This document shows, one piece after another, positions 15,753-42,543 of a stretch of 44,209 nt of DNA. The translations under genes were made by a program, and so were the position numbers. The notes beneath the pieces are model-generated. The model saw only the letters and a program-made list of their open reading frames with translations. It was not told the DNA's origin and searched no databases. This DNA comes from an uncultured Christensenella sp. (lineage in GTDB: Bacteria > Bacillota > Clostridia > Christensenellales > DTU072): contig CAYVEU010000001.1 in the NCBI GenBank assembly GCA_964450015.1, positions 1-44,209 of the forward strand. Direction: 5' to 3'. Position 1 is the first letter of the stretch, and every line of letters starts with the position of its first letter.

Positions 15753-15764
15753 CGCTATGGGGAC
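15753..15764 (+). repeat. 12-bp direct repeat cgctatggggac, left copy (candidate target duplication/att)
   Basis: Identical 12-mer at 42532-42543. Both copies are followed within ~10 nt by aag(c)ttttttcc. Confidence 0.55.
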
Positions 15765-15790
15765 GGTGTCAAGTTTTTTCCGCATATTTC

Positions 15791-17116
15791 TTAATTATTT
15801 TTTATTGCGTTTTTTATCATACGCGCGAACGCGCTTGAAATCTTGCTTATTCCAGGTATTGCGCAAGCATCGACAGAATTGTTGACGGTCTTTGATATTA
15901 CGTTGTTACGTTTCAATTTCGCTACAATAGGGCTTTGCGCCTTTTCGCTAGTCGCAAAAAGCAAATTAAAATCGCCCTTATTGAACAGATACGCTCTTAG
16001 CTTTGCCATGCGCTCCGCGCCTGCTAAGCTCCACCCCATCGGACGCGAACTCATGCGCGCCGAAAGAACGTGCGATACGTGCCCTTCGGCACTGCACCTG
16101 CTGTCGCGGTTTATATACTCGATATTACCTGCAACGAATAATCTCAACCTATTAGCTTCTTTGCTTGAAATCTTATTGCTTCGGCATATACTTAGAAACG
16201 ACTGCTTATTACCCGTATAAACAGCGGTTGAAAGGCTTTTCAGTATTTCCTTATCCCCTTGACTTAAGGTTAGCAACGCTCTTTGCAGATGAAATTTGTC
16301 TAAGCTGAACTCAACGTTCGGCAAGATATAGCTTCCGTTCTTTATCCAGGTTGCGCCGTCGCCTGCTAAATGAACGTTGGCTTTGTGACAACGGTAATTG
16401 TCATTTATGTAATCTGCAACATCGTCCCATATATCGATTGCACCACCTTGTGCCGACGTAAAATAGCGCGGGTTTATGAGTTATGGTCTTTCTTTTGTGT
16501 TCTCCCTACCCTCATGCACGTAAACAAGCTTAACTTCTGCGGGCTTGCCCGTGTTCAAGTGTATGTGGTCTTCGTCCGCTTCGATGAAAATATCCGCCGC
16601 GTCCCTATTCGTTTGGGTATACGGTGCCTCTATCTCCTCTAAACTTTTGACGATGTTATACACCGTTTGTCGGGACACCGTGTTGTCGGCAATCTTTGCC
16701 GCCTTGCCGTAGCTTGTAATTACTGCATCTGATACGAGCTTCGCTTTCATTCCCTTTTCGATACGGCTACGCTTCTCAAGCTCAAGAAGCTCATCAACCG
16801 CAAAAAAATACCGTTCCTCTTGTTTGTCAAAGTAAAGCGTGTGCTTTATTTCAACCTCTCCCATTTCTGTAAGTAGCTTTCTCTTTTTGTTTTTATTGCG
16901 TATAACAATGCGGTGCTTGTCCCTATTTGCGTCGAACGTCGTTTCCAACGTCGCAACGATTAAACCCAGAACATTACATCCTAGCTCGTTCATTTCGTGT
17001 TTTGTTTTTTGTGTTATATCGGCAAACGACAACTTCCCGATACCGTGCGCGGAATAAAGCAAGATTTTATTGACGCTTTCCCTAATTACTTGTTCGATTT
17101 TCTCTTTTATTTGCAT
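15791..17116 (-). pseudogene. ISLre2 / UPF0236-family DDE transposase interrupted by one in-frame TAA (16481-16483)
   Basis: ORFs 16481-17116 and 15791-16324 are in the same frame (offset 159 nt). The frame stays open across the gap: ...VHEGRENTKERP*LINPRYFTSAQGG...HLAGDGATWIKNGSYILPNVEF... The layout matches UPF0236 proteins (..ADEDH.., ..RYFGG.., ..GDGA.WIK..). Confidence 0.8.
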
Positions 17117-17171
17117 AGCAAATACCTCCCGTTTTTGCAGGTATTATACTATTTTTATTTCCGCACACGGT

Positions 17172-17199
17172 AAAAAAAGCGGCATAATTGCCGCTTTTC
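17172..17199 (-). terminator. Intrinsic terminator after the element lipoprotein gene
   Basis: agcggca-taat-tgccgct with a T-run on the minus strand. Confidence 0.6.
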
Positions 17200-17212
17200 T
17201 CTTGAAATTTTG

Positions 17213-17248
17213 CAACTTGTCCGACTTGTCGAACTTGTTTAACTTGCT
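17213..17248 (+). repeat. Four tandem 9-bp units caacttgtc cgacttgtc gaacttgtt taacttgct
   Basis: Read directly. The first 17 nt are identical to 39829-39845. Confidence 0.8.
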
Positions 17249-17813
17249 ATTTCTCGTAAAAATAAGGAATAAATATGTAATCGTTATTATCGTCAACTAT
17301 AGGTTCCCCATCTAGGGTTACCTTTTGCTTGAACGCAACGGCTTGCCATTCCTCTTTTGTCAAATTGGTTTTCTTGAAAATATAAGTTATATCATCTAGC
17401 TCAACTGTCATTCTATCATTAGACACCGTCGCCTTATATATTTGTTGAGAACCATTATTATGCCCGAAATTAAAAGCTAAGCGATATATATCTTGTTGTT
17501 CCGTTGTTTGCGCACTGCCCAACAAACCATAGCTTTCATATAGAATTGTTTTGTCAGTTGAAATATATTCGTGGTTTGGAATATAAGCACGATAATTGTA
17601 AACGTGTATTGCCGTTTCTCCGTCTGCGGCTGTCCACTTCTTACATTCAAAATAATACTGTGCTTTGTCGTGCCCTTGCATATATCCAACCCACGAACCT
17701 ATGATACTCTCTTGCGGTTCTTCGGTTTTACCGCAGGCAACAAGCGATAACGCCATTACCGACGCTAGAATAACACAAAGCAAAACAATGCCTATTCTCT
17801 TTTTCATTTCCAT
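17247..17813 (-). CDS. Lipoprotein of unknown function
   Basis: Signal peptide plus lipobox LSLVACGK. ATG at 17811-17813 is preceded by aaggagagaga. Confidence 0.7.
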   Translation of the reverse strand: MEMKKRIGIVLLCVILASVMALSLVACGKTEEPQESIIGSWVGYMQGHDKAQYYFECKKWTAADGETAIHVYNYRAYIPNHEYISTDKTILYESYGLLGSAQTTEQQDIYRLAFNFGHNNGSQQIYKATVSNDRMTVELDDITYIFKKTNLTKEEWQAVAFKQKVTLDGEPIVDDNNDYIFIPYFYEK

Positions 17814-17879
17814 TCTCTCTCCTTGTTTGATGGGTAGATTATACCATATCATTTAGCCGTATTCAAGGAAAAATGCTAA

Positions 17880-18695
17880 TTAACCTTTCCCCGAACCTTT
17901 CTTTTTATCTTTTCCTTTACTTGAAACTTGTTTTGCTTGTCTAGCTTGCCCGACTTGTTGGACTTGTTGTTGCGATTGCTGTTGGTTCCCTTTTTGTGTT
18001 GTCTTTGTCTGTTCGGTCTTTATTTCCGCGTCGATTTTCTGCCCGCATTGCTCCATTGTTGCGGCTACCAAATCAAATATTTGATTGCCTTTATTCAATT
18101 TTGCTTCGTTATTCTTTTGTTCTGACGATTTTGAATACTGTTGTTGTTCGTGCTTTTTCGCTCCATCATCAATTTCTTCAACGGATAGTACTGTCCATCG
18201 TCCGCCATGCGAATTCAAGTAATTGTCGTTTCTATGTTCAAAAAACGTAACAGGAATAGTTACACCCGCTTTATCGTTCTTCAAAAACAAATGCAAGTTC
18301 CCATTGCCTTCATTCTTTTTTGACAGTAAAAAATCGGCACTGATATTCTTAAATTCGCCATTTAATGCTTTGAGCATTATGTTGGGGGCAAACAATGTAT
18401 TTCTCATCTTGTCAAATACGTCTAATCTAGCTTCCATTTCAGACAAATATGCGCTTTTGGCGATGTCCGCATAGGTTATTTCTTTATTTAGAATACGCCG
18501 ATACAATACTTGACTTTTATTTTTCATCATAGGTAAATCTTTAAGTTTATGCAACCCTATCAAGTGCTTAAAATTACTCGCACTAAAGACTATATCAAGT
18601 TCAAGTAATTTTTTATTTTTACCCGCAGTTAAATGAAACTTCTTTCCCTCTAAATTTTGCGAATAATAAATAGCCGCTTCTTGCAATTTATCCAT
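17880..18695 (-). CDS. PBECR4-like (phage-Barnase/EndoU/ColicinE5-D/RelE-like nuclease) domain protein with a Q/K-rich C-terminal tail
   Basis: 271 aa. The N-terminal ~170 aa (..FHLTAGKNKKLLELDIVFSASNFKHLIGLHKL.., ..NGEFKNISADFLLSK..LHLFLK..) resemble PBECR4 proteins as I recall them. The tail is low complexity (QQQSQQQVQQVGQARQAKQ..KGKDKKKGSGKG). Confidence 0.45.
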   Translation of the reverse strand: MDKLQEAAIYYSQNLEGKKFHLTAGKNKKLLELDIVFSASNFKHLIGLHKLKDLPMMKNKSQVLYRRILNKEITYADIAKSAYLSEMEARLDVFDKMRNTLFAPNIMLKALNGEFKNISADFLLSKKNEGNGNLHLFLKNDKAGVTIPVTFFEHRNDNYLNSHGGRWTVLSVEEIDDGAKKHEQQQYSKSSEQKNNEAKLNKGNQIFDLVAATMEQCGQKIDAEIKTEQTKTTQKGNQQQSQQQVQQVGQARQAKQVSSKGKDKKKGSGKG

Positions 18696-18715
18696 ATCTT
18701 TCTCCTATATGTATG

Positions 18716-18747
18716 AAAAAAGCCCTTTTACAAGGGCTTAATTTTTT
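18716..18747. terminator. Bidirectional intrinsic terminator
   Basis: aaaaaagccctt-ttac-aagggctt followed by aatttttt. Confidence 0.6.
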
Positions 18748-18924
18748 ATTTCGCTTTTCTTTCGGTTACTAAACCTATTCAAGAGTTGGACAGCGATAAC
18801 CGTTTGGGACCTCTGCATAACACTTCCTTGACCAAGCACTATGCTTCACAGGTAGCACGTAAATCTTGTTCACGCACCAAGGTTCTACCTTGTATTTTTA
18901 TTATATGCAATTATATCCGTTTTG

Positions 18925-19203
18925 TCAATATTTTTTTCCTAAAATTTCTTTATACTTATCTATTCGCTCTCTATTTTGCAGTATTGCGTCCTCGATGAGC
19001 TTATTTATAATCTCCGCCTGCGTCATACCCGACGTTGCTACCAACGCTGTGAAATCGTCCCACAGTTCGTCTTTTATCTTCCACGTACGTTGCGTGGTTG
19101 GACTTTTCTTTGTGTTCTCCGATGACGCTATCGTGCGTTGCGTAGGCGATGAAAATAAACTGTCTAAAAGCCCGTAATTTTGTTTGCTGTTATTCTTTCC
19201 CAT
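18925..19203 (-). CDS. Ribbon-helix-helix protein, candidate ParG-like centromere-binding partner of ParA
   Basis: 92 aa. RTWKIKDELWDDFTALVATSGMTQAEIINKLIEDAI fits a beta-alpha-alpha RHH pattern. Its start lies 1 nt after the parA stop. Confidence 0.55.
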   Translation of the reverse strand: MGKNNSKQNYGLLDSLFSSPTQRTIASSENTKKSPTTQRTWKIKDELWDDFTALVATSGMTQAEIINKLIEDAILQNRERIDKYKEILGKKY

Positions 19204-19204
19204 G

Positions 19205-19963
19205 TTATTTTATCTCCTTTAATATTTCATCGGCTAAAGCCGTATAATCTACCGTCGCCCTGCTGTTCAGCTTAAAATCTCGTACCGAAAGTCCGCTTGC
19301 TTGCGACGCGGGTATGTCTACCGTGAACCGTATTTTCGTATCAAACAGCTTACAATTCAGAAGCTCTTTTATTTTCTCCGACAAGACGCCCTCAAGATGG
19401 CGCGTCAACGTTCGGCGGTTTTGGTACTTGACTAGGACAACTCCCAACACCCTTAACGACGGGTTAAGCGGTTTTACTTGCTCAACCGTTTCCGCAATCA
19501 TCTTCACGCCCATTGCACTGAAGTATTCGGCTTCAGCGGGCACGATAACGTAATCGGCGGCAACGAGAGCAGCCGCAGTTACTTGATTTACGATAGGCGG
19601 ACAGTCTATCAAAACGTAATCGTACGAGCTTGTAACCGTTTTCAAAATATCGCGTATACGGATAACGAACGCAGGCAAGGCGGCGAACCGCAACATCTCG
19701 CCCTGCAACGAGGTATCTGACGGTATGACGTCGCCGTAACGACACTGTACTTTTGCTTCGGAAACGCCACACTCGCCGAGAAGAAGCTCGCGCACAGTAC
19801 GAACTGGGTTTATCACGCTACTAAACGCCGTTAAATTGGCTTGAGCGTCTAAATCGACGCCGAGCACACGACTGCCACGCAGTTTGAGTTCAGCCATTAA
19901 ATTGGCAACAGTGGACGTCTTGCCAACGCCACCCTTTTGATTAAATACTACTATCGTTTTCAT
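19205..19963 (-). CDS. parA: ParA/Soj-family partition ATPase
   Basis: 252 aa with the deviant Walker A NQKGGVGKTS. Confidence 0.9.
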   Translation of the reverse strand: MKTIVVFNQKGGVGKTSTVANLMAELKLRGSRVLGVDLDAQANLTAFSSVINPVRTVRELLLGECGVSEAKVQCRYGDVIPSDTSLQGEMLRFAALPAFVIRIRDILKTVTSSYDYVLIDCPPIVNQVTAAALVAADYVIVPAEAEYFSAMGVKMIAETVEQVKPLNPSLRVLGVVLVKYQNRRTLTRHLEGVLSEKIKELLNCKLFDTKIRFTVDIPASQASGLSVRDFKLNSRATVDYTALADEILKEIK

Positions 19964-20252: not shown

Positions 20253-20570
20253 TTACTTCTTTTCCGAAACAGGCTTGCGGTCCGTAAACTCAACTTGTAC
20301 GTTTACCAGTTTTACCGCAACGCGACGTTCATCTTCTTTGATATACGTATCAATATTCAAATCGCCGCTACAGCAAACGCCGCTACCCTTTTTCAAAAAC
20401 TTAGCGCAGTTCTCCGCGCTTGCGCCCCAAACCTCAACGCGCAATACGTCGGGGCTGTCTTTGCCCGGTCTATTGGACGCTACGGAAAACACCGCTACTT
20501 TTCTGTCTTCGCCTATCGTTTTAAGCTCGACGTCATTTGTTAGGTTACCTTGAATTGTTGTTTTAATCAT
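20253..20570 (-). CDS. ssb: Single-stranded DNA-binding protein (short OB-fold SSB lacking an acidic C-terminal tip)
   Basis: 105 aa. MIKTTIQGNLTNDVELK...VEVWGASAENCAKFLKKGSGVCCSGDL is typical of an SSB OB fold. RBS aaggag. Confidence 0.8.
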   Translation of the reverse strand: MIKTTIQGNLTNDVELKTIGEDRKVAVFSVASNRPGKDSPDVLRVEVWGASAENCAKFLKKGSGVCCSGDLNIDTYIKEDERRVAVKLVNVQVEFTDRKPVSEKK

Positions 20571-20583
20571 TTTCTACACTCCT

Positions 20584-23244
20584 TTATTTATGATTAGGAC
20601 TTATAGGCGTCCCTGCCTTTATTAAATTGATACCGTCCGCAACGTCGAATAACGTATAAACGACGTCGCTTGCAACGACTTGAAAGCTCGTACGTTCCCG
20701 CGCCGAGCAAATAGCAAAGCATTGCCCGTTGCCTGCCGTTGCAATCTGGTTGCGCTCCACGTCGTTGATTTCGCCTGCATTTCGATACAAGTCTGTAAGT
20801 ATCTGCAGGTCCGCAGGTGCAAGGCTGAAAATAAACGAATATTGCGCGTTATTTATAATTGCCGTAGTCTTTTGCACGACAGCACTATTGCCGATAATAT
20901 CCGACAAATTTTGCGTTAAAAACGCTATGCTACCGTCGTACTTTCTTATACGTTTATACCATAAGAAAACGAACTCCAACGCAATAGGATACTCTGCGTC
21001 AACAAAGTTATAGCCCTCATCGAGCACGACGAACGGGTGCAACGGTACGCTTGAGTTACGGTTAAGCTCTCTTATATTGATAATCTGTTGGTCGAGATAG
21101 CGCATGATAACGAGCATTTGCGCGTTAGCAACGACGTTGTTTTTCGCCGCAAAAAGTGACTGAAAGTTGAATACAACCAGACGTTCATCTGTCGTAAGCG
21201 TAGAAGCTCCGTTCCACAAATTGGCGAACCGTCCGCCTGCCGCGAACTTTGCAACGTACGTTCTAATGCGGTCGAGGTTCTCGTGTCGCATGGGCGACGT
21301 TTCTTTCTCGAACTCCTCTTCAACCAACGATTTCAAATCGTCAAACGTCGGAAAGGCGTCCGCGCCGAGTTGCGTACAGTCCGTCGTTTCATTAATACCG
21401 CGCTTCGCGTATAACTTGCTCAACAAGTTGTTAAGCTCCTCAAGCGCGTCTGACGTAATACCCTTGAGCGTTATCGAAAAGAAGCTCTCAAGAAAACGCA
21501 AGTGTGCGCTGAATACCGCCTCGGGTGCGGCGGGGCTTCCGTCATCTGTTAGTATTTGATATATATGTAACGGGTTCAAACGCCCTTCGGTCGCGTTGCC
21601 CACGTCGATGAACCGCCCCTTTACGTTACGGCATAAGTGTAGATACTCATTTTCTGGGTCAAGAATAAAAATCTTTGAGTTATCCGAATACACAAGAGAT
21701 AACAACGTCTTTCCGAAAAACGATTTACCGCTTCCAGATTTACCGAGAACCATAATATTTGAGTTTATGTACTGTTTGAAATCACGCTTCCATATATCCA
21801 AAATAACGGGGTAATAATCGTAACCGAGCGTAAAGCCCTTAGGCTCGATAACCGAAGTAAAAACGAACGGGAATACTCCTGCAAGGCTTTCGGAATTTAT
21901 GCCGCGTTCTAAACTCTTCAGCGCGGTGCGTCTGGATATGCTCGCCGTGGCGAAACCGTCGAATTGCCTGCCCCGTAACATATTTATTCGGAAGCCGTTA
22001 GATTGTATTTGACGTCGTAAATTCTTCTTAAATGCGGCGTTTGTTTCTGTTGTGTTATTATAGCCCGTTATCGTGATAGAGCAGTCGAATAGCAGTTCGT
22101 TTTCGTTCTGTAATTGCTTTGCAAGCTCCGCCATCGTTTGCACGTGCGTTTCTTGACTTATAGCCTGGCTAATCTTCCCCGTTCCGCCGCGCCTAGTTTC
22201 AAGCTCGACAACGGCGCGGTCGATACGCTTAACCGCTTTGTCTTTATCGACGGGTTTTATCGTCAATACGACTTTCGTATTGTCGATATTAAACAGCCCT
22301 GCCCCCCATGCGTTGCCAACGGCAAGCGGATAATCGGATATAGCGCACGTGAAAGAGTAAACGTCATCGCAAACACATGAATTTGCCGTAAACCGAATTT
22401 TGTCTGGCTTGACAAATTCGGCAATATCTTCTGCCTCGTAAATATCGCGCTCGTCAAAGTTGCGGTTATAGCAGTATTTGAAAAAGACGGCTATTTCCAT
22501 ATCGTCAAGAATAGACGTAGGCAAACCCGCAACGTCGAACGCTCCGCGCGCAAAATCTAATTGCTTCAGAACCGCCTCTCTATCATCATCGTAGACAACA
22601 AAATAGTAATACGGACGATATTGTTTTTCGACGTTGTTTAAGCTATCTATTTGCCCTAAACGGCTCTTTAATATCGCAATTTTAGCCTCGTCTTGCTCTT
22701 TTGCCTTTTCCGCCGCTTCGAGCTTTTCAAACAAGTTCGCCGCTACTTCGTCGTAGTTTATCGGTCTATCGAGCTTTACGAGTTGCACAACGGAATTTTC
22801 GCCCAGTCCGTTCAACAAGCTTGCAACGGCGGATATACGGCGATTTTGTTCTATCTCATCAAGCAAGCCGAACTCAATACTTCCAACGGATAAAACCGCG
22901 CCGTAATAATTGCCGTAATTTATGACGCCATCATCTTCGATACTCTGAAACGGTAACAGTTCGGTAACATTACCCCTCTTCGCTCCCTTGGTATATTTTT
23001 TTCGCGAAACGAAATAGCGTATCATGTAGATTAAATCATTATACATACGCTCTCCGTTGTCAGAAAAAAACAGCATGACCGAAATCGATGCAAAGGCTAA
23101 AAGTTCCGCCCATTTATAGCGAAAGTTACTCATTGCTATCAAAAACGCAATCATACCTAGCCCAAAAGCTAAAACTATATCCAAAAGTGTAAAGTTCCGC
23201 CATACGGTTGGGTTTACTTTTGATTTCTTCGGAATAATTCTCAT
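20584..23244 (-). CDS. VirB4-family conjugative ATPase with an N-terminal VirB3/PrgI-like two-TM segment
   Basis: 886 aa. Walker A LGKSGSGKSF and Walker B-like FVVLDEGYNF. N-terminal TM pair (LLDIVLAFGLGMIAFLIA..). Confidence 0.85.
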   Translation of the reverse strand: MRIIPKKSKVNPTVWRNFTLLDIVLAFGLGMIAFLIAMSNFRYKWAELLAFASISVMLFFSDNGERMYNDLIYMIRYFVSRKKYTKGAKRGNVTELLPFQSIEDDGVINYGNYYGAVLSVGSIEFGLLDEIEQNRRISAVASLLNGLGENSVVQLVKLDRPINYDEVAANLFEKLEAAEKAKEQDEAKIAILKSRLGQIDSLNNVEKQYRPYYYFVVYDDDREAVLKQLDFARGAFDVAGLPTSILDDMEIAVFFKYCYNRNFDERDIYEAEDIAEFVKPDKIRFTANSCVCDDVYSFTCAISDYPLAVGNAWGAGLFNIDNTKVVLTIKPVDKDKAVKRIDRAVVELETRRGGTGKISQAISQETHVQTMAELAKQLQNENELLFDCSITITGYNNTTETNAAFKKNLRRQIQSNGFRINMLRGRQFDGFATASISRRTALKSLERGINSESLAGVFPFVFTSVIEPKGFTLGYDYYPVILDIWKRDFKQYINSNIMVLGKSGSGKSFFGKTLLSLVYSDNSKIFILDPENEYLHLCRNVKGRFIDVGNATEGRLNPLHIYQILTDDGSPAAPEAVFSAHLRFLESFFSITLKGITSDALEELNNLLSKLYAKRGINETTDCTQLGADAFPTFDDLKSLVEEEFEKETSPMRHENLDRIRTYVAKFAAGGRFANLWNGASTLTTDERLVVFNFQSLFAAKNNVVANAQMLVIMRYLDQQIINIRELNRNSSVPLHPFVVLDEGYNFVDAEYPIALEFVFLWYKRIRKYDGSIAFLTQNLSDIIGNSAVVQKTTAIINNAQYSFIFSLAPADLQILTDLYRNAGEINDVERNQIATAGNGQCFAICSARERTSFQVVASDVVYTLFDVADGINLIKAGTPISPNHK

Positions 23245-23260
23245 AGTTTACACCTCACTT

Positions 23261-25162: not shown

Positions 25163-25180
25163 TACCGACCACCTTTTTTC

Positions 25181-34064: not shown

Positions 34065-36298
34065 TCTCTTTCTACCTCCTCAATTTGCTCTGGCACAAAA
34101 CACCGAAATAAAATAAAATTCCTTACCTGTATAAACGTTGCAGAAAGTATATAATTACCCTTACCCGCCGCGTCATCAGCTAATCTATCTAGTAATACTA
34201 ATTTGGTCTTAATATCGCATCCGTAAAGTAGCTCAAACGTATCTTTCGGCGTCTTTCCCTTTAGGCATTGCAACCGTTTTTGCACGTCCGCCAACATTTG
34301 TACCGCCTTGCGCTTCCGCAACTCGTTTAACTCTTCCGTTTTATTTTCAACGACAAGTTGCGTATCGTTTCTCACGTCATCTATTTGTTGATAGTCCTCG
34401 CTTAAAAGCTGTTTTTCGGTTGTCATAAACGCCGTATATTTAGCTATATCGTAGTGCATAACGTCCTCATCAAAATCGATAAACTTACTAGGCTTAAGGT
34501 TTGCAGGCTCGGCGTTGTAAATATCTTTTGCTTTGAAAAACGGGGTAAATTTTGCCCTAATCGGATAATTACCCAAACACACAACTATTGCGTTGCCGAA
34601 AATTTTGTTTGCGGGGTCGTTCAAATGCTCAAGCTCATTCGGATAAATAAGCGGTACACTCTGCGCCGACGTCGATACCGACATTTCCTTATTCTCCGAA
34701 TAGCTGACCTGCTTAACTTTCTTTTTGCCGCACATATCTGAAAATGCTTTTCTTGTGTTCTCGTCATTTGTTCCGATAAATATCTGCGCGTTGCAGTTGC
34801 TCCGGATAATCGCCGCTACCTCTTTACCGTATTTATCGTCAAGTTGATTAAAGTCTTGGATAACAGGCATAAGCCATATATGCCTCGAACGTCCGACGGT
34901 AACTATGCTGTCAAGCTTATGGAAACGCGGCAAGTTGCCGAACTCGTCCATAATAAAGTAAACGTTACGCAATAGCTCTTGCGATTTTGTCTTGCCCGCT
35001 ATTTTATTCTCCGTTGCCTTTTCAACGAGGGCTTTATACATTTGAGTGATAAACAAGCTGACAAGCTTGTGACGGTTCTCCTTTTCGTCTGGAATTTTCA
35101 AGAATAACGCGTTCGCGGTTTCGTCAAAATCGCTAAACTCTATTGCGTTGCCGCTAGTAAGCGCGGCAATTCCCGTGTCCGCCATCCACGTTAAGTATTG
35201 ACTAACATCGCTCAAGTACGACGATAAAGTTCTATCCTCGGAAACGAGCACCGTATTCGACAAGCCGTGCGACTTCGATTTCGGCGAGCGAGTATCGAAA
35301 TACGCACGTAACTCTTCGCAATCTCCTTTGGCGTAGTCGCTTACGGTCCTATAAAGATTATAAAGACTAAATTTTTCCCGCGGCATATAGCCGTCGTAAA
35401 CGTCTTCCCAAAACGCAACTGCAATAGCAAGCAACAAATCGCGCGCACCCTTTTCCCAACCGCTTTCGTTTTTATTTTCAATCGGACACATGGTATAAAT
35501 TAAGTCCTGTAAGTCAACGAAAATTTCGTCCTTTAACCGTGCGACAATAGCCTTTCTAGCGTCCTCTGCTTCAGATTGCGTCAAGTATACATTGCCGTCG
35601 CAAAAATACTTGCCCCGTTTTTGCACTATCCTACAACCGTGAATGCGGTCTGTTTTGCGCCATACGTCATTAAATGGGTTCCATTGGGTAGAGTGATAAA
35701 CGTCAGCTAAATCTATAACGCTAACCTTGTACCCCTCTGCCATAAGCTTTTTACCATGGTGGTTATATAACTCCCCCTTTGGGTCGGTTATAAGCATAGA
35801 CGGCTTCGTCTTCGTCCTACACAATATTTCTATAGTCGGATCTATAATTGCCGACGTCTTGCCCGTTCCAGTCGTACCGACTAGAATAGTGTGCGTCGGG
35901 TCTTTCAAAACGACGTTTATATCATTGCCTTTTACCTCGGCAGAAATCGGAACGCCGTCATTAACTTTATGTAACTGACTTAATTTTGTCACGGTATATC
36001 CCTCATTCTTCGATATTTCCGTCCTGCTCATAAAATGAGAGTTCTCTAGGTCTGCGTTTACCTTTAGAACGCGTTTGCTTCCTCGCACCCTTATATCAAA
36101 AGCGACAACGCCTACTATAACCGCTATTACTGCACCCCATATCGCATACAGTTTCCCGTCTGTAATCGCCTCTACAAAATCTGTCTTAAATATGGTCATG
36201 GACAAAAAAGCCAACGCCAAAAGGACTACGACCGCCCCTGCTGTCAGTCCGAATATTGTCAATATTGTTTTTTGTAGTTTCGTCAACTCTTTCTTCAT
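34046..36298 (-). CDS. Type IV coupling protein (VirD4/TraG family)
   Basis: 750 aa with two N-terminal TM helices. Walker A VGTTGTGKTS and Walker B YFIMDEFGNLP. Confidence 0.85.
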   Translation of the reverse strand: MKKELTKLQKTILTIFGLTAGAVVVLLALAFLSMTIFKTDFVEAITDGKLYAIWGAVIAVIVGVVAFDIRVRGSKRVLKVNADLENSHFMSRTEISKNEGYTVTKLSQLHKVNDGVPISAEVKGNDINVVLKDPTHTILVGTTGTGKTSAIIDPTIEILCRTKTKPSMLITDPKGELYNHHGKKLMAEGYKVSVIDLADVYHSTQWNPFNDVWRKTDRIHGCRIVQKRGKYFCDGNVYLTQSEAEDARKAIVARLKDEIFVDLQDLIYTMCPIENKNESGWEKGARDLLLAIAVAFWEDVYDGYMPREKFSLYNLYRTVSDYAKGDCEELRAYFDTRSPKSKSHGLSNTVLVSEDRTLSSYLSDVSQYLTWMADTGIAALTSGNAIEFSDFDETANALFLKIPDEKENRHKLVSLFITQMYKALVEKATENKIAGKTKSQELLRNVYFIMDEFGNLPRFHKLDSIVTVGRSRHIWLMPVIQDFNQLDDKYGKEVAAIIRSNCNAQIFIGTNDENTRKAFSDMCGKKKVKQVSYSENKEMSVSTSAQSVPLIYPNELEHLNDPANKIFGNAIVVCLGNYPIRAKFTPFFKAKDIYNAEPANLKPSKFIDFDEDVMHYDIAKYTAFMTTEKQLLSEDYQQIDDVRNDTQLVVENKTEELNELRKRKAVQMLADVQKRLQCLKGKTPKDTFELLYGCDIKTKLVLLDRLADDAAGKGNYILSATFIQVRNFILFRCFVPEQIEEVERECQAMR

Positions 36299-36300
36299 TC

Positions 36301-37602
36301 CTAACCGTTTACCGCTTTTCCGTATTCGTTTTCACGTTCAATTTGTTTTACTGTCTTCATAAAGTTTGCCCGCTCCCCTTTGCAAACTTCGGTAAGCATT
36401 TTTTGAATATCCCGAATTGCGTCTACACGCTTTCCACGTCTGCGACGCGCCGCTATTTTTAGGCTCCTATCGTTCACACCGTATTTTCGTTTTTTATCGC
36501 GTAAATCGCCGTCCTTTATCATCTTGCAAAGCCCCATAACCACACCGCGTACGCGCTTTTGATAATCAGCCTGCAAACGCTCAAAATAATCAACATTTTT
36601 AAGGTCTACGTACTTCGGCTCAAGCCCTGGTCTACCCGCCATCACATCTTCTATCTCATCTTTGCTCATTCGCCTATTGTTGACGTAAGCAAGCTTATTT
36701 TCTTTTACGAGCTTAACCACGTTTTCCTTAACGCTCGCTAATTCCTTTATCATCTGCTCATGCGCCAGCCGTGCGTTCTCATCGGAAGCTATAAGCAAGT
36801 TGGCCACTAAATCAATTTGCGGATAAAGCGGTTCCATATTCTTGGACCCCGCCTGCAATCTACCAGTTTTAGGCAAACTTGCTATTAACCGATTAAGTTC
36901 ACGGTTAAGTTGCGTATTTCGCTTTACACCAGTTACAACGTCTTTGCGCACCACTTTTAATGCGTCCATTGCTTTATTTCTGGCAACGTAATATTCTTCC
37001 CCATGCTCGTCTAGGTGCATATTTGCGCTCACAAGATAATTATCAATAGCTTTTGCCTCGAATTTGCCTTTCTTTGTGTAACAAAGCTCATTGTTTTTAT
37101 CCCTACGCAACGGCTGTTTCTCGAAAAACGCAAAATGTATATGGCGGTTATCCGTATCATCATGCAAAGACGCATAAAGGCGTACGTTCTTTGGCTTCAA
37201 GTGCGTACGCTCTAAAAAAACGTTAAACGTCTGCTTTAGGAACTTAACGGCGTTCTCTTGAACATCAAACACTTCGTTATACTGTTCTTCAAAGCTTATG
37301 AAGCCGTGCCAGATTATGCTTTCCGTCTTTGCCAACTCCTCTTTCAGTTCCGCTACTTGCTCATCGCTCAAGACACCGTTCATATCGAAAAGTCCGCCGT
37401 TCGTACCCTCGCGCGTGAAGTAGTGCTCAGCGTCCTTATTCTTTACTACCTTTTTATTGTCCAAAGCATACGTAAAAAAGTTGTACTCGCTCGTAAGGTT
37501 ATAGAACTTACGACGTGCTTCGTACTTCTCACGGTCTTTACCTTTTAGGTAAGACGGTGGGTTGGGCTGTGTAAAAGCGATATTAAATAGTGCTTTTGGC
37601 AT
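36301..37602 (-). CDS. Putative conjugative relaxase (HUH/3-His type)
   Basis: 433 aa. LHDDTDNRHIHFAFFEK fits the relaxase H.D...(N/H).H.H metal-binding motif. It lies immediately upstream of the T4CP gene. RBS aggaga. Confidence 0.6.
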   Translation of the reverse strand: MPKALFNIAFTQPNPPSYLKGKDREKYEARRKFYNLTSEYNFFTYALDNKKVVKNKDAEHYFTREGTNGGLFDMNGVLSDEQVAELKEELAKTESIIWHGFISFEEQYNEVFDVQENAVKFLKQTFNVFLERTHLKPKNVRLYASLHDDTDNRHIHFAFFEKQPLRRDKNNELCYTKKGKFEAKAIDNYLVSANMHLDEHGEEYYVARNKAMDALKVVRKDVVTGVKRNTQLNRELNRLIASLPKTGRLQAGSKNMEPLYPQIDLVANLLIASDENARLAHEQMIKELASVKENVVKLVKENKLAYVNNRRMSKDEIEDVMAGRPGLEPKYVDLKNVDYFERLQADYQKRVRGVVMGLCKMIKDGDLRDKKRKYGVNDRSLKIAARRRRGKRVDAIRDIQKMLTEVCKGERANFMKTVKQIERENEYGKAVNG

Positions 37603-38385: not shown

Positions 38386-38438
38386 ATCCTCTCCCGACGC
38401 GCAAGCGTCAACCGAAAAATGGTTTCCATTTTGTCCAA

Positions 38439-38535: not shown

Positions 38536-38584
38536 CTTATCCTGCTTAGGTTTTTAAGGTCAAAAAATAAAGAGAAATTCAATC

Positions 38585-41452
38585 TCACTTTATTTTTTTG
38601 CTACCGTTTTTCTGTCCGCCGCTATAACGAACCTTCAAGCTTGAGCAAGCTTTCTGTATCGAGCGCGTTACATACGCCGCATTTTTCGTTTGAGGACGAT
38701 AACGACCAGAGCTTTCAAAGACGCTACGCATTTGTTCCTCGTTGCAATCGGAAAAGAAAGCCAACATGTTCAGCAACGCTAAATCATCGCGGTGTTTGTC
38801 GCCTGTGACGTCGCCGCCATTATAAAGTGTATCGAACATTTCCCCTCTCTTCGAATTGCGTATCCTCTCTATCAATTCGGCGTCGCTTTGATAGCGTAAA
38901 TCGGTCGTTCTCGGCGTGTACGCTCTAGGTGCAGGTTCTTCTTTCGCCCGCTCCCCTAATTGCTTTCGTAACCACGTCATGGTCGCGGATGGGCATTGAG
39001 TTAGTTCCTTTGACTTGCCAAACATGTTGCCAGTCATTGACATGAAGCGGGAATTATCGTAAACTTCGAGTTCTTCTCCGTTCAACTCCGTACGGTTGCA
39101 ATATTTGCCATTGGATAAAATATCGTCCTTTAAGAAAAAGTGAAGCCCATTTCCAGACGTGCTCTTTTCACAATAGACGTTAGCTAGTTCGGGAACGAGC
39201 TTGTTTGCAATATCGTTCATTTCGCCCTCTGCCTTAGTCGTAGCTACACCGTTAAGCTTCCCGTCTTTCACTATGCACTTATCGAGGTCTATACAACTTA
39301 TACCGCTACCGTCAAGGGCGAACGACAAGCCCTCACAGTTATTTTCAACGGCATAATTGTATGCAGTATCAAAATCAGCCCACGTCGAGCTATCGTCGAT
39401 TTTCGCCCATTTCCCAGTATGCGCCGAAAGAACGAACTTGTCCTTCTTCCCTTTTTCTTCGTTCCATTTCGTCCTATATACACACCAGTTCGGCATTCCT
39501 TTCATCTCGGCAGGCACGTTATTTTTGAGTTCTTCCAACCTTGCAACGTTCCGTTTTGACGCCGAAACCCGCTGCGCGCTCTTGCCACTTTCTTTGCCAT
39601 CTAAAACGGCGCGCAATTCCTCGCTTGTCAATTTGACCTCGCGTCCATCGTCTTTAAGGGTAAATTCAAAATTCGGCGCCGTTACTAATCTAACTGCGTT
39701 TTCTTCGACATGCAATTTACTAGTCGGAGCCAAAAACACAAACGAGGAAAACTCCACGCCCTTTGGCATTCTCAACATCGTAGATTTTCCGTACTCTTTG
39801 AGTTTATTTTCAAGCGGAAAAACAAGTTCAACTTGTCCGACTTGTTGAGCTTGTTCGGCTTGTTGAACTTGTTGTTGTGGCTCTTTTTTGTGTTCTTCTC
39901 GAGCTTTACTCTTTACCGAAATTTTCTTTTGCGTTTTGTCTTTCTCAATTACAACGACGTCATGAGCTTCGCTAAGTTGCTGTATGTAATTATCGGCTAC
40001 ATGATATGGAAAGCCCACCATCGGAACGCGTTCTCTAAGTCCAACGTCGCGCCCCGTTAAGGTTAAATTTAGCTCTTTGGCTACGTCTTGTGCTTTGTCC
40101 CCCATGACTTCGTAAAAATCGCCTATTCGTTGAGCAACGACGGCGTTCTGGTTCTCGTTCTGAACGAGGGCGTAATCTCGATAATACGGTTGCGCTCCAA
40201 ATATTTTTATCTTCTCAATGCCGTTTTCACTTCCGACGTCATACTGTATATCGTTCGCCCACTTGCAACCGTCAGCTTGCGAATAACATACATTTAATAT
40301 TGTTTTATATGTATTCTTTCCTTTGAACGCCTCGTTCATCTCGCCTAAGAGTTGCTCCGCCTGCTCTAACGGCATACTGGTGTTCTCTTTCACAAAACCT
40401 ATTTCAGACTGCCCATAAAGAACGTAAGGCTTCCCCTCTTTATTTACCAGAGTTTCTATCTCTTGACGTAGAGCTTCTTCTTGAGCGACGTTTTGTTTTT
40501 CTTTTGTGTTCTCCACCGTCTTTGCTTTTTCAAGATAATTTTCTTTGATATAGCTCGTTATCTTGCCTGCGTCTGCGGCGGCACGATAGAATACGTTCGG
40601 GTCTTTTTTTACTACGGATAACCACGATTTCAAATAAGCCGCATGATTTGCTATTTCCGCACCGGAAAGGTCTATGCCCATGTCACTCTGCATAAATGCC
40701 GACGTAAGCTCTGCGCGCAATTCTTCGACTACGTAATTTGCGCTACCAAAACCGCCGCTCATATCACGATTTAACCGACTGCTATGCCCCGTCGAGTGCC
40801 CTATTTCGTGCAAAGCCGTAGCGTAATAATCGTTCATTGTCTTGAACTTGTCAACTTCGGGCAAATGAATATCGTCCGTTCTCAAGCTATAATATGCGTT
40901 GTTCCCACCGTCATAATGTACAGGTGCCGCGCTGTTGGCTATTATCGTTTCTATGCGCTCGTTCTGCGCTTGCCGCTCCTCTGCGGTCATTTCTTTTTCT
41001 CTTGTGTTTTCTGGGAAATTATCGCATTGTTCGGCGTTAAAAACATTGTAATATTTCAAAACTCTGCTAACGTGCTCGGCAAGATACTCATTGCGTTCTT
41101 CGTCCGACATACCATCTAATACGCTCTCATCAAACGGCTTCTTTGTCTTTTTGTCGTACTGCGACCAGAAAAAGACGTCGCTTGACTTCGAACCCGCCTT
41201 TATCGACGCGCCTAAGTCCTTGGCTTGGTTAAACGTTACCCATCGAGGGTCTGTAAAGCCCTGCCGTTCGGCGGCTACAGCAAGGAATATGGAATTTAAG
41301 CCGTTATAATTTTTCAACGTGGCTCCGTTAAACGGCACGTTGGTTGAATACCACCCTTTAACCCAACGTTCGGGGTTCTTCTCCATGCTCTCTATTAATG
41401 CGTTGAGCATAGTCATACGCTTTTCTTCTACAAGCTTCCGATAATCAGCCAT
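38585..41452 (-). CDS. Polyvalent protein: ArdC-N ssDNA-binding domain + zincin (HEXXH) protease + MutS domain-I-like module + Q-rich linker + archaeo-eukaryotic primase (prim-pol) + primase C-terminal helical domain
   Basis: 955 aa.
- ArdC-N: NGATLKNYNGLNSIFL..WVTFNQAKDLGASIKAGSK.
- Zincin: ALHEIGHSTGH.
- MutS_I-like: GDFYEVMGDKAQDVAKELNLTLTGR..VPMVGFPYHVADNYIQQL.
- AEP motifs: CIDLDKC, STSGNGLHFFL, EVYDNSRFMSMTGN.
- C-terminal domain: DDLALLNMLAFFSDCNEEQMRSVFESSGRYRP. Confidence 0.8.
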   Translation of the reverse strand: MADYRKLVEEKRMTMLNALIESMEKNPERWVKGWYSTNVPFNGATLKNYNGLNSIFLAVAAERQGFTDPRWVTFNQAKDLGASIKAGSKSSDVFFWSQYDKKTKKPFDESVLDGMSDEERNEYLAEHVSRVLKYYNVFNAEQCDNFPENTREKEMTAEERQAQNERIETIIANSAAPVHYDGGNNAYYSLRTDDIHLPEVDKFKTMNDYYATALHEIGHSTGHSSRLNRDMSGGFGSANYVVEELRAELTSAFMQSDMGIDLSGAEIANHAAYLKSWLSVVKKDPNVFYRAAADAGKITSYIKENYLEKAKTVENTKEKQNVAQEEALRQEIETLVNKEGKPYVLYGQSEIGFVKENTSMPLEQAEQLLGEMNEAFKGKNTYKTILNVCYSQADGCKWANDIQYDVGSENGIEKIKIFGAQPYYRDYALVQNENQNAVVAQRIGDFYEVMGDKAQDVAKELNLTLTGRDVGLRERVPMVGFPYHVADNYIQQLSEAHDVVVIEKDKTQKKISVKSKAREEHKKEPQQQVQQAEQAQQVGQVELVFPLENKLKEYGKSTMLRMPKGVEFSSFVFLAPTSKLHVEENAVRLVTAPNFEFTLKDDGREVKLTSEELRAVLDGKESGKSAQRVSASKRNVARLEELKNNVPAEMKGMPNWCVYRTKWNEEKGKKDKFVLSAHTGKWAKIDDSSTWADFDTAYNYAVENNCEGLSFALDGSGISCIDLDKCIVKDGKLNGVATTKAEGEMNDIANKLVPELANVYCEKSTSGNGLHFFLKDDILSNGKYCNRTELNGEELEVYDNSRFMSMTGNMFGKSKELTQCPSATMTWLRKQLGERAKEEPAPRAYTPRTTDLRYQSDAELIERIRNSKRGEMFDTLYNGGDVTGDKHRDDLALLNMLAFFSDCNEEQMRSVFESSGRYRPQTKNAAYVTRSIQKACSSLKVRYSGGQKNGSKKIK

Positions 41453-41636: not shown

Positions 41637-41778
41637 ATCAGCTCCTTTAAGAACACAAGACAGAACCACCTCGCCACATCAACCTCTTGCTTTACGCGCA
41701 TATATTCTTGTAAATAAGTATTGGCTTCTTATTTGTGTTCTCTTGTTAGTTATTTATTATTTATAATTTATATATCGT

Positions 41779-41892
41779 CTGCAATTTTTGACGTACCCCA
41801 CTGCAATTTTTGACGTACCCCACTGCAATTTTTGACGTACGTCATTTTTTGACCCGCGTCAATTTTTGACCCACGTCAATTTTTGACGTACC
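41779..41892 (+). repeat. Iteron-like array: six same-orientation CAATTTTTGAC cores (3 x 22-bp units, then 3 x ~17-bp units)
   Basis: ctgcaatttttgacgtacccca at 41779-41800 and 41801-41822; a truncated unit at 41823-41840; gtcattttttgacccgc at 41841; gtcaatttttgacccac at 41858; gtcaatttttgacgtacc at 41875. An AT-rich tract (41720-41778) lies adjacent. Confidence 0.85.
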
Positions 41893-42246
41893 TCAACTTT
41901 CGGTTTTATTGCTCGGGCAAAGAATAGCCACTCCGCGCTTGAGTTGATTTATGTAATCCAAGTTGGCACGGTACGCGCAACGTTTAACGTTGTCTTTGGT
42001 AAATTCACGTTTGAATATGTAATTTTTATCTTGTAGGTTTTGTAACATTGCCGTAACCGTGTTGTGTGACTTTATATTGCCAAAAGTTTGCATAAACTTT
42101 AGCGACCCTGTAAACTCGCTCTCCCCGTCTTGAGAAAAACTGTAGATTATGGCAAATATGATAAGCTCGTTACCTTTCAACCTTAAGACGTTCAGCATCC
42201 ACCCTAGTACCGTGTAAAAGTTCTCGTCCCTTATTGTGTTATTCAT
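41893..42246 (-). CDS. Winged-helix DNA-binding protein (RepA_N/DnaD-like), candidate initiator or regulator binding the adjacent iterons
   Basis: 117 aa from the ATG at 42244-42246 (RBS aaaggag). FYTVLGWMLNVLRLKGNELIIFAIIYSFSQDGESEFTGSLKFMQTFGNIKSHNTVTAMLQNLQDKNYI follows the RepA_N-like pattern FY.(L/V)P..L......L...E..L...L. Confidence 0.5.
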   Translation of the reverse strand: MNNTIRDENFYTVLGWMLNVLRLKGNELIIFAIIYSFSQDGESEFTGSLKFMQTFGNIKSHNTVTAMLQNLQDKNYIFKREFTKDNVKRCAYRANLDYINQLKRGVAILCPSNKTES

Positions 42247-42324
42247 TACAGTTTCTCCTTTACTCATTGTCCTTAGAGGCGTTCCCCCTCTCGGACAGAC
42301 ACTCCCCCTTTTTTGCAATAAAAA

Positions 42325-42349
42325 AGGCTTACGTCAATAACATAAGCCT
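42325..42349 (-). terminator. Inward-facing intrinsic terminator near the right end of the element
   Basis: aggctta-N11-taagcct. On the minus strand it is followed by ttttttatt. Confidence 0.5.
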
Positions 42350-42380
42350 AGTTCTGAATATATACTTGACTGGTGATATT

Positions 42381-42431
42381 GACATTCTCTCTCTAAATCT
42401 CTCCACTAATACTTAGTAGAGAGAGAATGTC
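42381..42431. repeat. 15-bp perfect inverted repeat (gacattctctctcta / tagagagagaatgtc) with a 21-nt loop
   Basis: Read base by base: 42381-42395 pairs with 42417-42431. Confidence 0.8.
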
Positions 42432-42531
42432 GGGTTCACTACAAGAATTTGCTAGTAGAATAACGCGTTCAAATAAGAATTTTGCTCGTTCAAATAGCAA
42501 ACCCTTTCATTCACCTAAATTTTACACTAAC

Positions 42532-42543
42532 CGCTATGGGGAC
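42532..42543 (+). repeat. 12-bp direct repeat cgctatggggac, right copy
   Basis: Identical to 15753-15764. Confidence 0.55.

Follow-up and report, generated by a model that had tools for sequence, protein, structure and literature searches.

The question raised by this locus is how a block of conjugation genes came to lie in a chromosome when none of its ORFs encodes a tyrosine or serine recombinase. The window analysed here, an entire metagenomic contig of 44 kb, is chromosomal DNA of a Christensenella-like gut bacterium. Domain searches of all ORFs, including a gene for a 2842-aa protein and the longest plus-strand shadow ORFs, detected no tyrosine or serine recombinase domain, as the preliminary description of this DNA had stated. 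The sole recombinase gene is a transposase gene of the ISLre2/TnGBS family (p-MULT 3), at one end of the block. We conclude that positions 15762-42531 (26,770 bp) very probably form an integrative and conjugative element for which DDE transposition, and not site-specific recombination, was the route into the chromosome. A TnGBS-like conjugative element with a terminal ISLre2/UPF0236 DDE transposase as its only recombinase had already been proposed, and this proposal is borne out by family-specific inverted repeats, a 9-bp target duplication, an oriented insertion upstream of a promoter and relatives of the same design. The block between the two copies of a 12-bp repeat consists almost entirely of coding sequence on the minus strand, which carries all the genes located below.

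We first consider the flanks. The locus carries no insert in seven related Christensenellales genomes, where a DnaA-box cluster and the LRR gene are followed immediately by the M20 peptidase gene. Because these boxes and the M20 gene are adjacent in the seven relatives, the block in the window is an insertion, and the M20 peptidase and LRR genes were rightly described as backbone. No empty site was found in the same species; among M20 orthologues the closest reach 75-83% identity, and the intergenic DNA beside them does not align with that of the window.

The ends of the element were defined by alignment with other family members, a check that had been suggested from the outset and that also sized the duplication at 9 bp. 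The transposase-proximal inverted repeat (IR-right, GAAATATGCGGAAAAAACTTGACACCGTC read towards the tip) occupies 15762-15790 on the minus strand. Its core of 18-22 nt is identical among elements whose transposases are just 41-60% identical, its tip ends in an invariant C, and a profile built from relatives has a single match in the window, at this position (E = 1.8e-7). The distal repeat (IR-left, 42508-42531, minus strand) reads GTTAGTGTAAAATTTAGGTGAATG inward from its tip at 42531; the tip GnnnGTGTAAAATTT is common to the relatives L092, L112, L114-L121 and L127, and contig L126 begins exactly there. The terminal motif G-NNN-GTGT[C/A]AA[G/A]TTT, with at most one mismatch, occurs twice in the 44 kb, at 15762(+) and 42531(-), in inverted orientation. 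The repeats had been called weak, which holds when one end is compared with the other, but family-wide comparison shows either end to be strongly conserved. In TnGBS and ISLre2, asymmetric ends of this kind are believed to determine which way round the element inserts (PMC3942029).

Identical 9-mers, CGCTATGGG, abut the two tips: the left copy at 15753-15761, next to a tip whose position was set independently from other family members, and the right copy at 42532-42540. The chance of an identical 9-mer at two given positions is about 4e-6. The 12-bp direct repeats reported earlier do exist, since the window contains CGCTATGGGGAC at two positions and no others, 15753-15764 and 42532-42543 (about 0.09 chance matches expected at ≤1 mismatch), but the duplication itself is 9 bp, the last three bases (GAC) of the left copy being the tip of the element's own inverted repeat. 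The similarity noted after each 12-mer ('aag(c)ttttttcc') did not survive comparison with the family repeat profile, in which the right flank gives no significant match. An exact 12-bp direct repeat at both junctions could also be read as an attL/attR core made by an unrecognised or host-encoded site-specific recombinase. We regard this as extremely unlikely, because the element has no recombinase domain of that kind, three of the twelve bases are part of a conserved repeat tip that elements inserted at unrelated sites have in common, and the 9-mers flanking related elements differ at every site, which indicates a target duplication and not a fixed attachment site.

The left-most gene (15791-17116) encodes an ISLre2/TnGBS-family DDE transposase (PF06782/UPF0236, E = 4.5e-63; NCBIfam ISLre2, 250 bits against a cut-off of 200), so its initial assignment as a UPF0236/ISLre2-like transposase stands. 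The further idea that it might represent a different transposase family from that of TnGBS has to be dropped, as published TnGBS and ISLre2 transposases are grouped in a single family, p-MULT 3 (PMC3942029), and PF06782 is present in all TnGBS transposases (PMC4701971). Firmicutes commonly carry ISLre2 insertion sequences (PMC3942029) and the transposase gene is outermost, which would also fit an independent insertion sequence that landed next to a decayed element or an integrated plasmid, with a different route of entry for the large block. This reading is very improbable: no repeat of either type, distal or proximal, separates the transposase start (17116) from the next gene, the profile search found no second repeat, and the distal repeat of the family is 25 kb away at 42531, beside the replicon. 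Moreover, relatives with 41-60% identical transposases share the same end-to-end layout.

The transposase frame, 442 codons long, is free of frameshifts but is interrupted once, by an in-frame TAA at codon 212 (16481-16483). This codon aligns with a mostly conserved Glu, the change being from GAA to TAA. Because the stop cuts off the second Asp and the Glu from the DNA-binding portion with the first Asp, the copy in the window has most likely lost the ability to excise or integrate by itself, and is thus probably immobilised. The element may nevertheless still be mobile, if the TAA is an assembly or consensus error or a minority allele, or if an intact family transposase elsewhere in the genome acts in trans. 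An error at this codon could have arisen because the window is a single metagenomic contig; furthermore, all 73 residues invariant across 15 family members are kept (including D181/D183, D253, D273xxH276 and E344), and the other long genes are all open, among them ORFs of 2842, 955, 886 and 750 aa. However, the given sequence has a clean in-frame TAA, the 44 kb contain no second transposase copy, and family members do decay, as with L127, a deletion derivative present in 22 places. We therefore consider retained mobility of this copy possible but rather unlikely.

We then looked at the target. The M20 peptidase gene has a promoter outside the element, on the minus strand (15717-15745), with a -35 box TTGTTT (15745-15740), a 17-bp spacer and a -10 box TATACT (15722-15717). 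This promoter was read from the sequence; it is a weak match to the consensus (8/12) and was not called by a promoter-scanning tool, and it stands at the same position as TTGACT-17-TATAAT promoters in the relatives L001 and L002. The transposase-proximal tip lies 16 bp upstream of the -35 box, which is of sigma-70 type, a distance that replaces the ~19 bp first given for this junction, and the insertion is oriented. The same 16 bp were measured in L081, L085, L086, L091 and L127; the spacing rises to 17 bp in L082, where the target is a tRNA promoter, and falls to 15 bp in L088. A promoter is thus found 15-17 bp from the tip at 8 of 9 junctions, for a background of 3.6% (binomial P = 2.7e-11). 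For comparison, the repeats produced by TnGBS transposases are 8 bp long, and TnGBS insertions lie 15-16 bp upstream of the -35 box (PMC4701971, PMC3942029). An assembly chimera of a conjugative plasmid and chromosomal DNA could be suspected in a metagenome-derived sequence whose block holds plasmid-like replication and partition genes, but it is scarcely credible: it would explain neither the 9-bp duplication at both family repeat tips nor the 16-bp promoter spacing, and removal of the block restores the gene order of the seven related genomes.

Relatives with intact transposases occupy many chromosomal sites. An identical transposase is found beside two different genes in L081 and L082, which represent one element, and an element with an identical relaxase occurs in eight different chromosomal contexts with a constant distal tip. 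Assembled contigs end at the distal tip or ≤84 nt from it. In the 10.1-kb L127, where the whole element lies within one locus, the same repeats are bordered by their own 9-bp duplication, GAACGAGAT. As for the circular junction whose detection had been recommended, one was seen in the relative L092 (IR-right tip, AAAGTT, IR-left tip), while for the element in the window neither such a junction nor a second insertion site is known. The 6-bp spacer agrees with the circle spacers of 6-10 bp reported for this transposase superfamily (PMC3942029). We found no published description of this clostridial element family.

The gene content listed in the preliminary description was recovered in full (a relaxase, here of MobL type, T4CP, VirB4-like and VirB6-like proteins, ParA, RHH, SSB, a primase fusion, here ArdC-MutS_I-primase, and an iteron array, here of six copies), and a T4SS pilin is encoded as well. 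For DNA processing, the region 34046-37602 encodes a MobL-type relaxase (36301-37602; Pfam MobL, E = 4e-20) and a type IV coupling protein (34046-36298; T4SS-DNA_transf, E = 4e-47); homologues of the relaxase are 56-69% identical, in the same gene order. The mating-pore block (20584-25486) comprises genes for a pilin-like protein (25181-25486; 38.9 against the NF045849 cut-off of 40, hence below it), a VirB6-like membrane protein (23261-25162), which passes NF045848 and NF045889, and a VirB4 ATPase (20584-23244), whose 591 bits just exceed the NF045975 (Mbov_0397 family) cut-off of 590. Their order is that of a Mycoplasma ICE, and the best plasmid matches are from Mollicutes, at 24-27% identity. 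Between the two modules, 25536-34064 encodes the repetitive 2842-aa surface protein with a C-terminal membrane anchor, a putative mating adhesin without Pfam or NCBIfam match; relatives carry a large homologue in the same position.

The partition module (18925-19963) consists of a ParA ATPase (19205-19963; AAA_31, E = 1.9e-43) and a small RHH-like protein (18925-19203; weak match to RepB-RCR_reg). A single-strand DNA-binding protein (20253-20570; Pfam SSB, E = 6e-17) and a polyvalent protein with six Pfam domains (38585-41452; ArdC-N, zincin peptidase, LPD25, MutS_I and primase-polymerase) are also encoded. A putative replicon (41779-42318, minus strand) combines six iterons (41779-41890; core CAATTTTTGAC, spacing 22 or 17 bp) with the adjacent gene for a 141-aa HTH_36 protein (41893-42318), and probably acts in replication. 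Close to the distal end, a perfect 15-bp inverted repeat (GACATTCTCTCTCTA ... TAGAGAGAGAATGTC, 42381-42431) is a candidate oriT or operator; L092 and L125/L126 have a similar GAGAGAG palindrome equally far from their distal repeat. The cargo includes a PBECR4 nuclease-domain protein (17880-18695; PF18813, E = 2e-26) and probably a predicted 201-aa lipoprotein (17247-17852), an ORF with a signal peptide and Cys but without Pfam or NCBIfam family match. A drum RNA (Rfam RF02958; 18747-18854, minus strand; 57.9 bits against a gathering score of 43) lies directly upstream of the PBECR4 gene and is absent at the seven related loci.

From the biology of TnGBS, ISLre2 and Mycoplasma ICEs, the following cycle can be proposed. 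The transposase would bind both repeats and excise a double-stranded circle in which they are a few bp apart. This circle would be replicated by the module of iterons, HTH protein and primase, and partitioned by ParA/RHH. The MobL relaxase would nick an oriT near the distal end, and one strand would be moved to the recipient by the coupling protein, VirB4, the VirB6-like and pilin-like proteins and the giant surface protein. Once the element has become circular again in the recipient, the transposase would insert it 15-17 bp upstream of a sigma-A promoter and in a single orientation.

Among known systems, TnGBS1 and TnGBS2 (Streptococcus; relatives in Enterococcus cecorum) share with the window element a PF06782/p-MULT 3 DDE transposase at one end as sole recombinase, imperfect and asymmetric terminal repeats with a terminal C, a target duplication of 8-9 bp, oriented insertion 15-17 bp upstream of a sigma-A -35 box, plasmid-like replication and ParA partition genes joined to a conjugation module, and a circular junction with a short spacer, seen here in a relative (PMC3942029, PMC4701971, PMC10117131). 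In contrast, TnGBS hosts are Lactobacillales whereas this host belongs to the Christensenellales (Clostridia), the relaxase is of MobL type, no RepA_N replicase was detected here, its place being taken by iterons, a small HTH protein and a primase-polymerase fusion, and the pore genes fall in Mollicute ICE families and not with TnGBS1 or Tn5252-type modules (TnGBS being taken from published descriptions). The ISLre2 insertion sequences have the same transposase family, 9-bp duplication and promoter-proximal targeting (PMC3942029), but hold the transposase alone between their repeats, whereas here the repeats lie 26.8 kb apart and enclose 19 genes, with no second repeat beside the transposase gene. 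ICE6013 of Staphylococcus aureus (IS30-like) is also a conjugative element with a DDE transposase in place of an integrase (PMC3942029); by its description it is set apart by an unrelated transposase family and by promoter targeting not being reported there.

The Mycoplasma ICEs (MICE, e.g. ICEA of M. agalactiae) resemble the window element in size (22-37 kb, about 20 genes), in their flanking inverted repeats, in a Mutator-superfamily DDE transposase as last gene and in the pilin-like, membrane-protein and VirB4 genes of the Mbov_0395, Mbov_0396 and Mbov_0397 families, in the same order (PMC7466169). However, the MICE transposase (CDS22) is of p-MULT 5 and inserts at random, whereas the window element is promoter-targeted and its transposase scores 101, below the Mbov_0401 cut-off of 162 and above that of ISLre2; a MobL relaxase is present, and the VirB4 is just 24-27% identical to Mollicute proteins. 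TnGBS in Streptococcus and ICEA in Mycoplasma, the closest systems to have been studied by experiment, are distant. The element is a member of a widespread clostridial family, and since its pilin-like, membrane-protein and VirB4 genes fall in Mycoplasma-ICE families, it joins integration of the TnGBS type to a pore of the Mycoplasma-ICE type within the Clostridia.

The single recombinase gene of the block is its left-most gene, which matches PF06782/UPF0236 in Pfam (E = 4.5e-63) and exceeds the curated NCBIfam cut-off for ISLre2 transposases (250 bits vs. 200), in line with the UPF0236/ISLre2-like assignment made in the preliminary description. The absence of a tyrosine or serine recombinase was also borne out, as domain searches, which also covered the 2842-aa surface protein and the longest shadow ORFs of the plus strand, gave no match in any ORF. 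The transposase has over 2,300 homologues, the closest being 60% identical and several being named ISLre2-family transposases by NCBI. One in-frame TAA (16481–16483, codon 212), previously missed, interrupts the 442-codon frame. This position is mostly Glu in an alignment with 14 homologues, and the simplest change is therefore GAA to TAA. The frame is otherwise intact at 73 of the 73 family-invariant residues, among which are the predicted D, D, D(2)H and E: following the catalytic D, D, E and C/D(2)H motifs defined in PMC3942029, D181/D183, D253, D273-K-F-H276 and E344 are invariant in the 15-sequence alignment and present in the window. Since the stop lies between the first Asp and the second Asp and Glu, the window's copy should not, judging from its sequence, move autonomously. 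Alternatively, the TAA may be a consensus error, or the transposase may be complemented in trans.

Three related loci (L088, L092 and L096) carry short repeats, TGTACGGACA and TGTCCGTACA, near the transposase gene. These motifs are found just 5′ of its start codon in several relatives; in L092, where this start lies off the contig, a similar motif is found in the intergenic region just inside the distal repeat. Their role may be that of an operator controlling the transposase gene. In the window, a different 14-bp inverted pair is found (17041–17054 and 17159–17172).

The 12-mer CGCTATGGGGAC, proposed in the preliminary description as the direct repeat bounding the block, is present at both junctions (15753–15764 and 42532–42543) and nowhere else in the window. 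Nineteen ORFs, all on the minus strand, occupy nearly the entire DNA between the two copies. Profile searches verified the gene list drawn up from the sequence, all on the minus strand: a MobL relaxase (36301–37602), a coupling protein (34046–36298), a VirB4-like ATPase (20584–23244), a T4SS pilin (25181–25486), ParA with a small RHH protein, an SSB, and a fusion of ArdC, zincin, LPD25, MutS_I and primase-polymerase domains (38585–41452). An array of six iterons (41779–41890) adjoins the gene for a small HTH_36 protein. In addition, a drum RNA (Rfam RF02958, 57.9 bits; 18747–18854, minus strand) is located directly 5′ of a gene with a PBECR4 nuclease domain (17880–18695, minus strand). Drum RNAs are associated with particular neighbouring protein genes and have no known function (Weinberg et al., PMC5737381). 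This RNA is absent from seven related loci, and the RNA and PBECR4 pair therefore looks like cargo.

Related elements were used to delimit the element. One homologous transposase, P0002 (56% identical to that of the window), is encoded at the end of a related element whose genes follow the same order (surface protein, pilin, VirB6-like protein, VirB4, ParA, transposase). With an identical transposase, this element adjoins two different host genes (L081, L083 and L084 vs. L082). Its transposase-proximal junctions share with the window a conserved terminus, GCGGAAAAAACTTGACAC, plus four more bases, the last of which is C. Scanning metagenomes with an 18-mer core of this terminus revealed further true ends in five loci (L086, L088, L091, L092 and L096); 18 of the 26 metagenome matches had no transposase nearby and were discarded as chance or orphan matches. 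On the distal side, relaxase homologues with 56–69% identity led to one element inserted in eight different chromosomal contexts (L114–L121), all eight of which share the distal tip GATAGTGTAAAATTTTGG, and a further contig (L126) begins exactly at this tip. All family members examined end in GACACnnnC at the proximal tip and begin with GnnnGTGT at the distal tip. The family motif G-NNN-GTGT[C/A]AA[G/A]TTT has only two sites in the 44-kb window, at 15762 (plus strand) and 42531 (minus strand), which places the element at 15762–42531 (26,770 bp), with a proximal repeat of 29 nt and a distal repeat of 24 nt.

Directly outside both tips lies the 9-mer CGCTATGGG. Hence, 9 bp of the 12-bp repeat stand as the target duplication, while the remaining GAC is the tip of the left repeat; this extra 3-bp match is best taken as chance (1 in 64). 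An IS standing alone, with its second repeat near position 17200, had been considered as the alternative. Motif and profile searches found no family repeat at 17117–17260 or beside the transposase start, and the only second repeat in the window is 26.8 kb away; the transposase gene is therefore not a self-contained IS.

About 100–150 nt inward of the distal repeat, three divergent family members have a GAGAGAG-rich palindrome followed by GTCAATAT (42381–42431 in the window, about 120–200 in L092 and about 150–215 in L125, with a counterpart in L126). Its arms are perfect over 15 bp in the window, and it is a candidate oriT or operator.

A 1264-bp metagenome contig (L092, PXZU01003800.1) joins the proximal tip to the distal tip at positions 34–80. 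It presents, in order, the end of the transposase gene, the proximal tip (...GACACCGTC), the 6-bp spacer AAAGTT, the distal tip (GTTGGTGTAAAATTTAGG...) and a gene with a primase-type C-terminal domain. From its sequence, this contig looks like the circle junction, or a replicating form, of a different family member rather than of the window's element, whose own circle junction is predicted to join ...CTTGACACCGTC to GTTAGTGTAAAATTT across 6–10 bp. Many contigs of about 27 kb carrying related relaxases were also considered as circular assemblies. The two examined end at the distal tip or 84 nt outside it, which indicates assembly breaks and not circles.

Another transposase, P0078, was found in 22 places of the assembly collection, and 10-kb flanks gave the locus L127. 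This locus carries a deletion derivative of 10.1 kb (L127/L128, 1718–11813) with both repeats and GAACGAGAT (9 bp) on each flank, which confirms the size of the duplication. It has lost the region from the relaxase to the 5′ part of the VirB4 gene, with the coupling protein and pore genes, and keeps the ArdC-primase fusion, VirB4 reduced to its C-terminal third, SSB, ParA and a transposase that is intact. Given its 22 occurrences, the derivative seems to be fixed in one species. In the same collection, one relaxase sequence was found in 147 blocks and one transposase sequence in 283.

For the choice of target, we measured how far the first base of a sigma-70-type −35 hexamer lies from the transposase-proximal tip. 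This distance is 16 bp in the window (TTGTTT-17-TATACT) as well as in L081, L085, L086, L091 and L127, 17 bp in L082 (promoter of a tRNA gene, 11408–11479), 15 bp in L088 and 13 bp in L096. When 8/12 matches are taken as the threshold, a promoter is located at 15–17 bp in 8 out of 9 junctions vs. 3.6% of background positions in the same sequences (binomial P = 2.7e-11). The window's promoter is weak and was not called by a simple scanner; it occupies the place of the strong promoters of the relatives.

The flanking genes show that the host is a member of the Christensenellales: they are closest to genes of Christensenella and Christensenellales MAGs, and the best orthologues of the M20 peptidase are 75–83% identical. 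Directly in front of the M20 gene, seven related genomes have clustered perfect DnaA boxes (TTATCCACA) and an LRR-protein gene in divergent orientation. In the window, the DnaA boxes (42850–42910) and the LRR gene (from 43044 onward) are found on the far side of the block. The preliminary description had proposed a search for the empty site, and none of the same species was found: a collection with one genome for each GTDB species contained no exact copy of the 33-mer CAAGCCCTTGCGCTATGGGGACAAATCGGAAGC, and this contig is the only recorded source of the window's M20 protein. In the orthologous loci, DnaA boxes and a promoter are kept in the intergenic DNA, with no alignment across the junction, so that these genomes provide synteny and not a base-exact empty site. 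With one copy of the 9-mer, the empty site is predicted to read CAAGCCCTTGCGCTATGGGGACAAATCGG.

The DnaA-box cluster itself, conserved in the seven related Christensenellales genomes, consists of three perfect boxes, all within 60 bp, in the region separating the M20 gene from the divergent LRR-protein gene. In the window, gene orientation switches at this cluster: all genes to its left are on the minus strand, and the gene to its right is on the plus strand. The cluster, with no dnaA gene nearby, may belong to an origin, or be a site that is regulated by DnaA or titrates it. The spacer between the boxes and the M20 promoter (42541–42845) exceeds that of the closest relatives by about 190 bp; a strong hairpin (GGGGTCCCCGAAAACC...GGTTTTTGGGG) and a second GGGGAC are found in it. 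We considered this spacer as the relic of an earlier insertion, which the profile search did not support. In particular, the segment 42541–42570 (GACAAATCGGAAGCTTTTTTCC) was examined as the repeat of an older element, an origin that would account for the extra GAC and the aag(c)ttttttcc similarity; it was not detected by the family-repeat profile, and blastn found nothing related. The resemblance seen on this right flank in the preliminary description (aag(c)ttttttcc) was therefore not upheld. Elsewhere in the chromosomal part of the window, a tmRNA gene (9116–9462, plus strand; Rfam, 120 bits) was found that ARAGORN did not report.

The transposases of TnGBS (Streptococcus ICEs) and of the ISLre2 insertion sequences form one family, p-MULT 3, characterized by inverted repeats of 18–39 bp with a terminal cytosine, duplications of 8–9 bp, circular intermediates with 6–10 bp between the repeats, and insertion in one orientation, with a sigma-A −35 box about 16 bp downstream on the IR-right side, the asymmetry of the repeats being the likely cause of this orientation (Guérillot et al., PMC3942029). 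All TnGBS transposases have been reported to contain PF06782, with 8-bp repeats and insertion 15–16 bp upstream of the −35 box (Ambroset et al., PMC4701971). As in TnGBS, the sole recombinase of our element is a PF06782 transposase at one extremity, although its gene has one in-frame stop. The catalytic residues, the repeats with terminal C, the 9-bp duplication and the oriented, promoter-targeted insertion are likewise those of TnGBS, and a spacer in the 6–10 bp range is observed in the probable circle junction of the relative L092 (6 bp). The proposed resemblance to TnGBS and ISLre2 was thus correct at the sequence level, the probable circle junction being that of this relative. The suggestion that a different transposase family might be involved was wrong, as the PF06782 and ISLre2 matches place the transposase in p-MULT 3 with TnGBS. 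Unlike TnGBS, the element has no detectable RepA_N theta replicon (profile searches of all its ORFs), in place of which we found the iterons, the HTH_36 protein and the primase-polymerase fusion, and its host belongs to the Christensenellales and not to Streptococcus or the Lactobacillales. It also differs from the ISLre2 insertion sequences (about 1.5–2 kb), whose repeats bracket only the transposase gene.

The backbone is where the difference lies. In TnGBS, the conjugation module is of the ConjTnGBS1 or ConjTnGBS2 (Tn5252 superfamily) type; in our element, VirB4, the membrane protein and the pilin appear, on indirect grounds, to belong to the Mollicute ICE families. VirB4 scores 591 bits (cut-off 590) with the NCBI model for the “ICE element conjugal transfer ATPase” Mbov_0397, the VirB6-like protein exceeds the cut-offs of the Mbov_0396 and MMCAP2_0566 models (99.8 vs. 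70 and 151 vs. 90, respectively), and the pilin is just below that of the Mbov_0395 model (38.9 vs. 40). In a search of 72,556 plasmid records, VirB4 was best matched over its full length by proteins of Spiroplasma plasmids and Mycoplasma ICEs (only 24–27% identity). The order pilin, membrane protein, ATPase is also that of a Mycoplasma hyopneumoniae ICE. Mycoplasma ICEs measure 22–37 kb, are flanked by inverted repeats and have a Mutator-type transposase gene in last position; this transposase is of the p-MULT 5 type (CDS22) and inserts at random (PMC7466169). In contrast, our transposase scores only 101 bits vs. a cut-off of 162 with NF046004 (Mbov_0401 family), below its score with the ISLre2 model, and the element has a promoter-targeted insertion in a Christensenellales host rather than a random insertion in a Mollicute. 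It therefore combines a TnGBS-like integration step with pore genes and a layout similar to those of Mycoplasma ICEs, and is a strict member of neither group. It is possible, and we put it forward only tentatively, that the element belongs to a large undescribed family of DDE-transposase conjugative elements of gut Clostridia linking these two Mutator-type ICE groups, Mycoplasma ICEs and TnGBS being offshoots of an older and much broader Firmicute lineage of transposon-like ICEs rather than isolated cases.

By analogy with TnGBS, ISLre2 and Mycoplasma ICEs, the transposase would excise the element as a circle. Replication of this circle would start at the iterons and use the HTH protein and the primase fusion, and ParA/RHH would partition it. 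The MobL relaxase would nick an oriT, possibly the perfect 15-bp palindrome, and transfer would proceed through a pore made of VirB4, the VirB6-like protein and the pilin, the giant surface protein serving as a putative adhesin. The element would then re-insert, in a fixed orientation, upstream of a promoter.

In the original survey, TnGBS-type elements were found in Streptococcus only (PMC3942029); the later literature also reports them in Enterococcus cecorum, and no p-MULT 3 ICE was described in Clostridia in the literature searched. The integration logic is known. Its combination with a Mollicute-type pore in Clostridia seems, like the size of the family, not to have been described before. 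Pipelines for ICE detection mostly seek tyrosine or serine integrases, and DDE transposases in ICEs are taken as passengers (PMC5587801). Integrase-based tools would miss or mis-delimit such elements, which insert beside the promoters of many genes and whose relatives are common in public assemblies. Here, a different conjugation backbone, in Clostridia, relies on the same integration logic of an IS-family transposase, a duplication of 9 bp and docking at a site 16 bp in front of promoters, and the Mollicute-type pore genes give a concrete lead on the origin of Mycoplasma ICEs.
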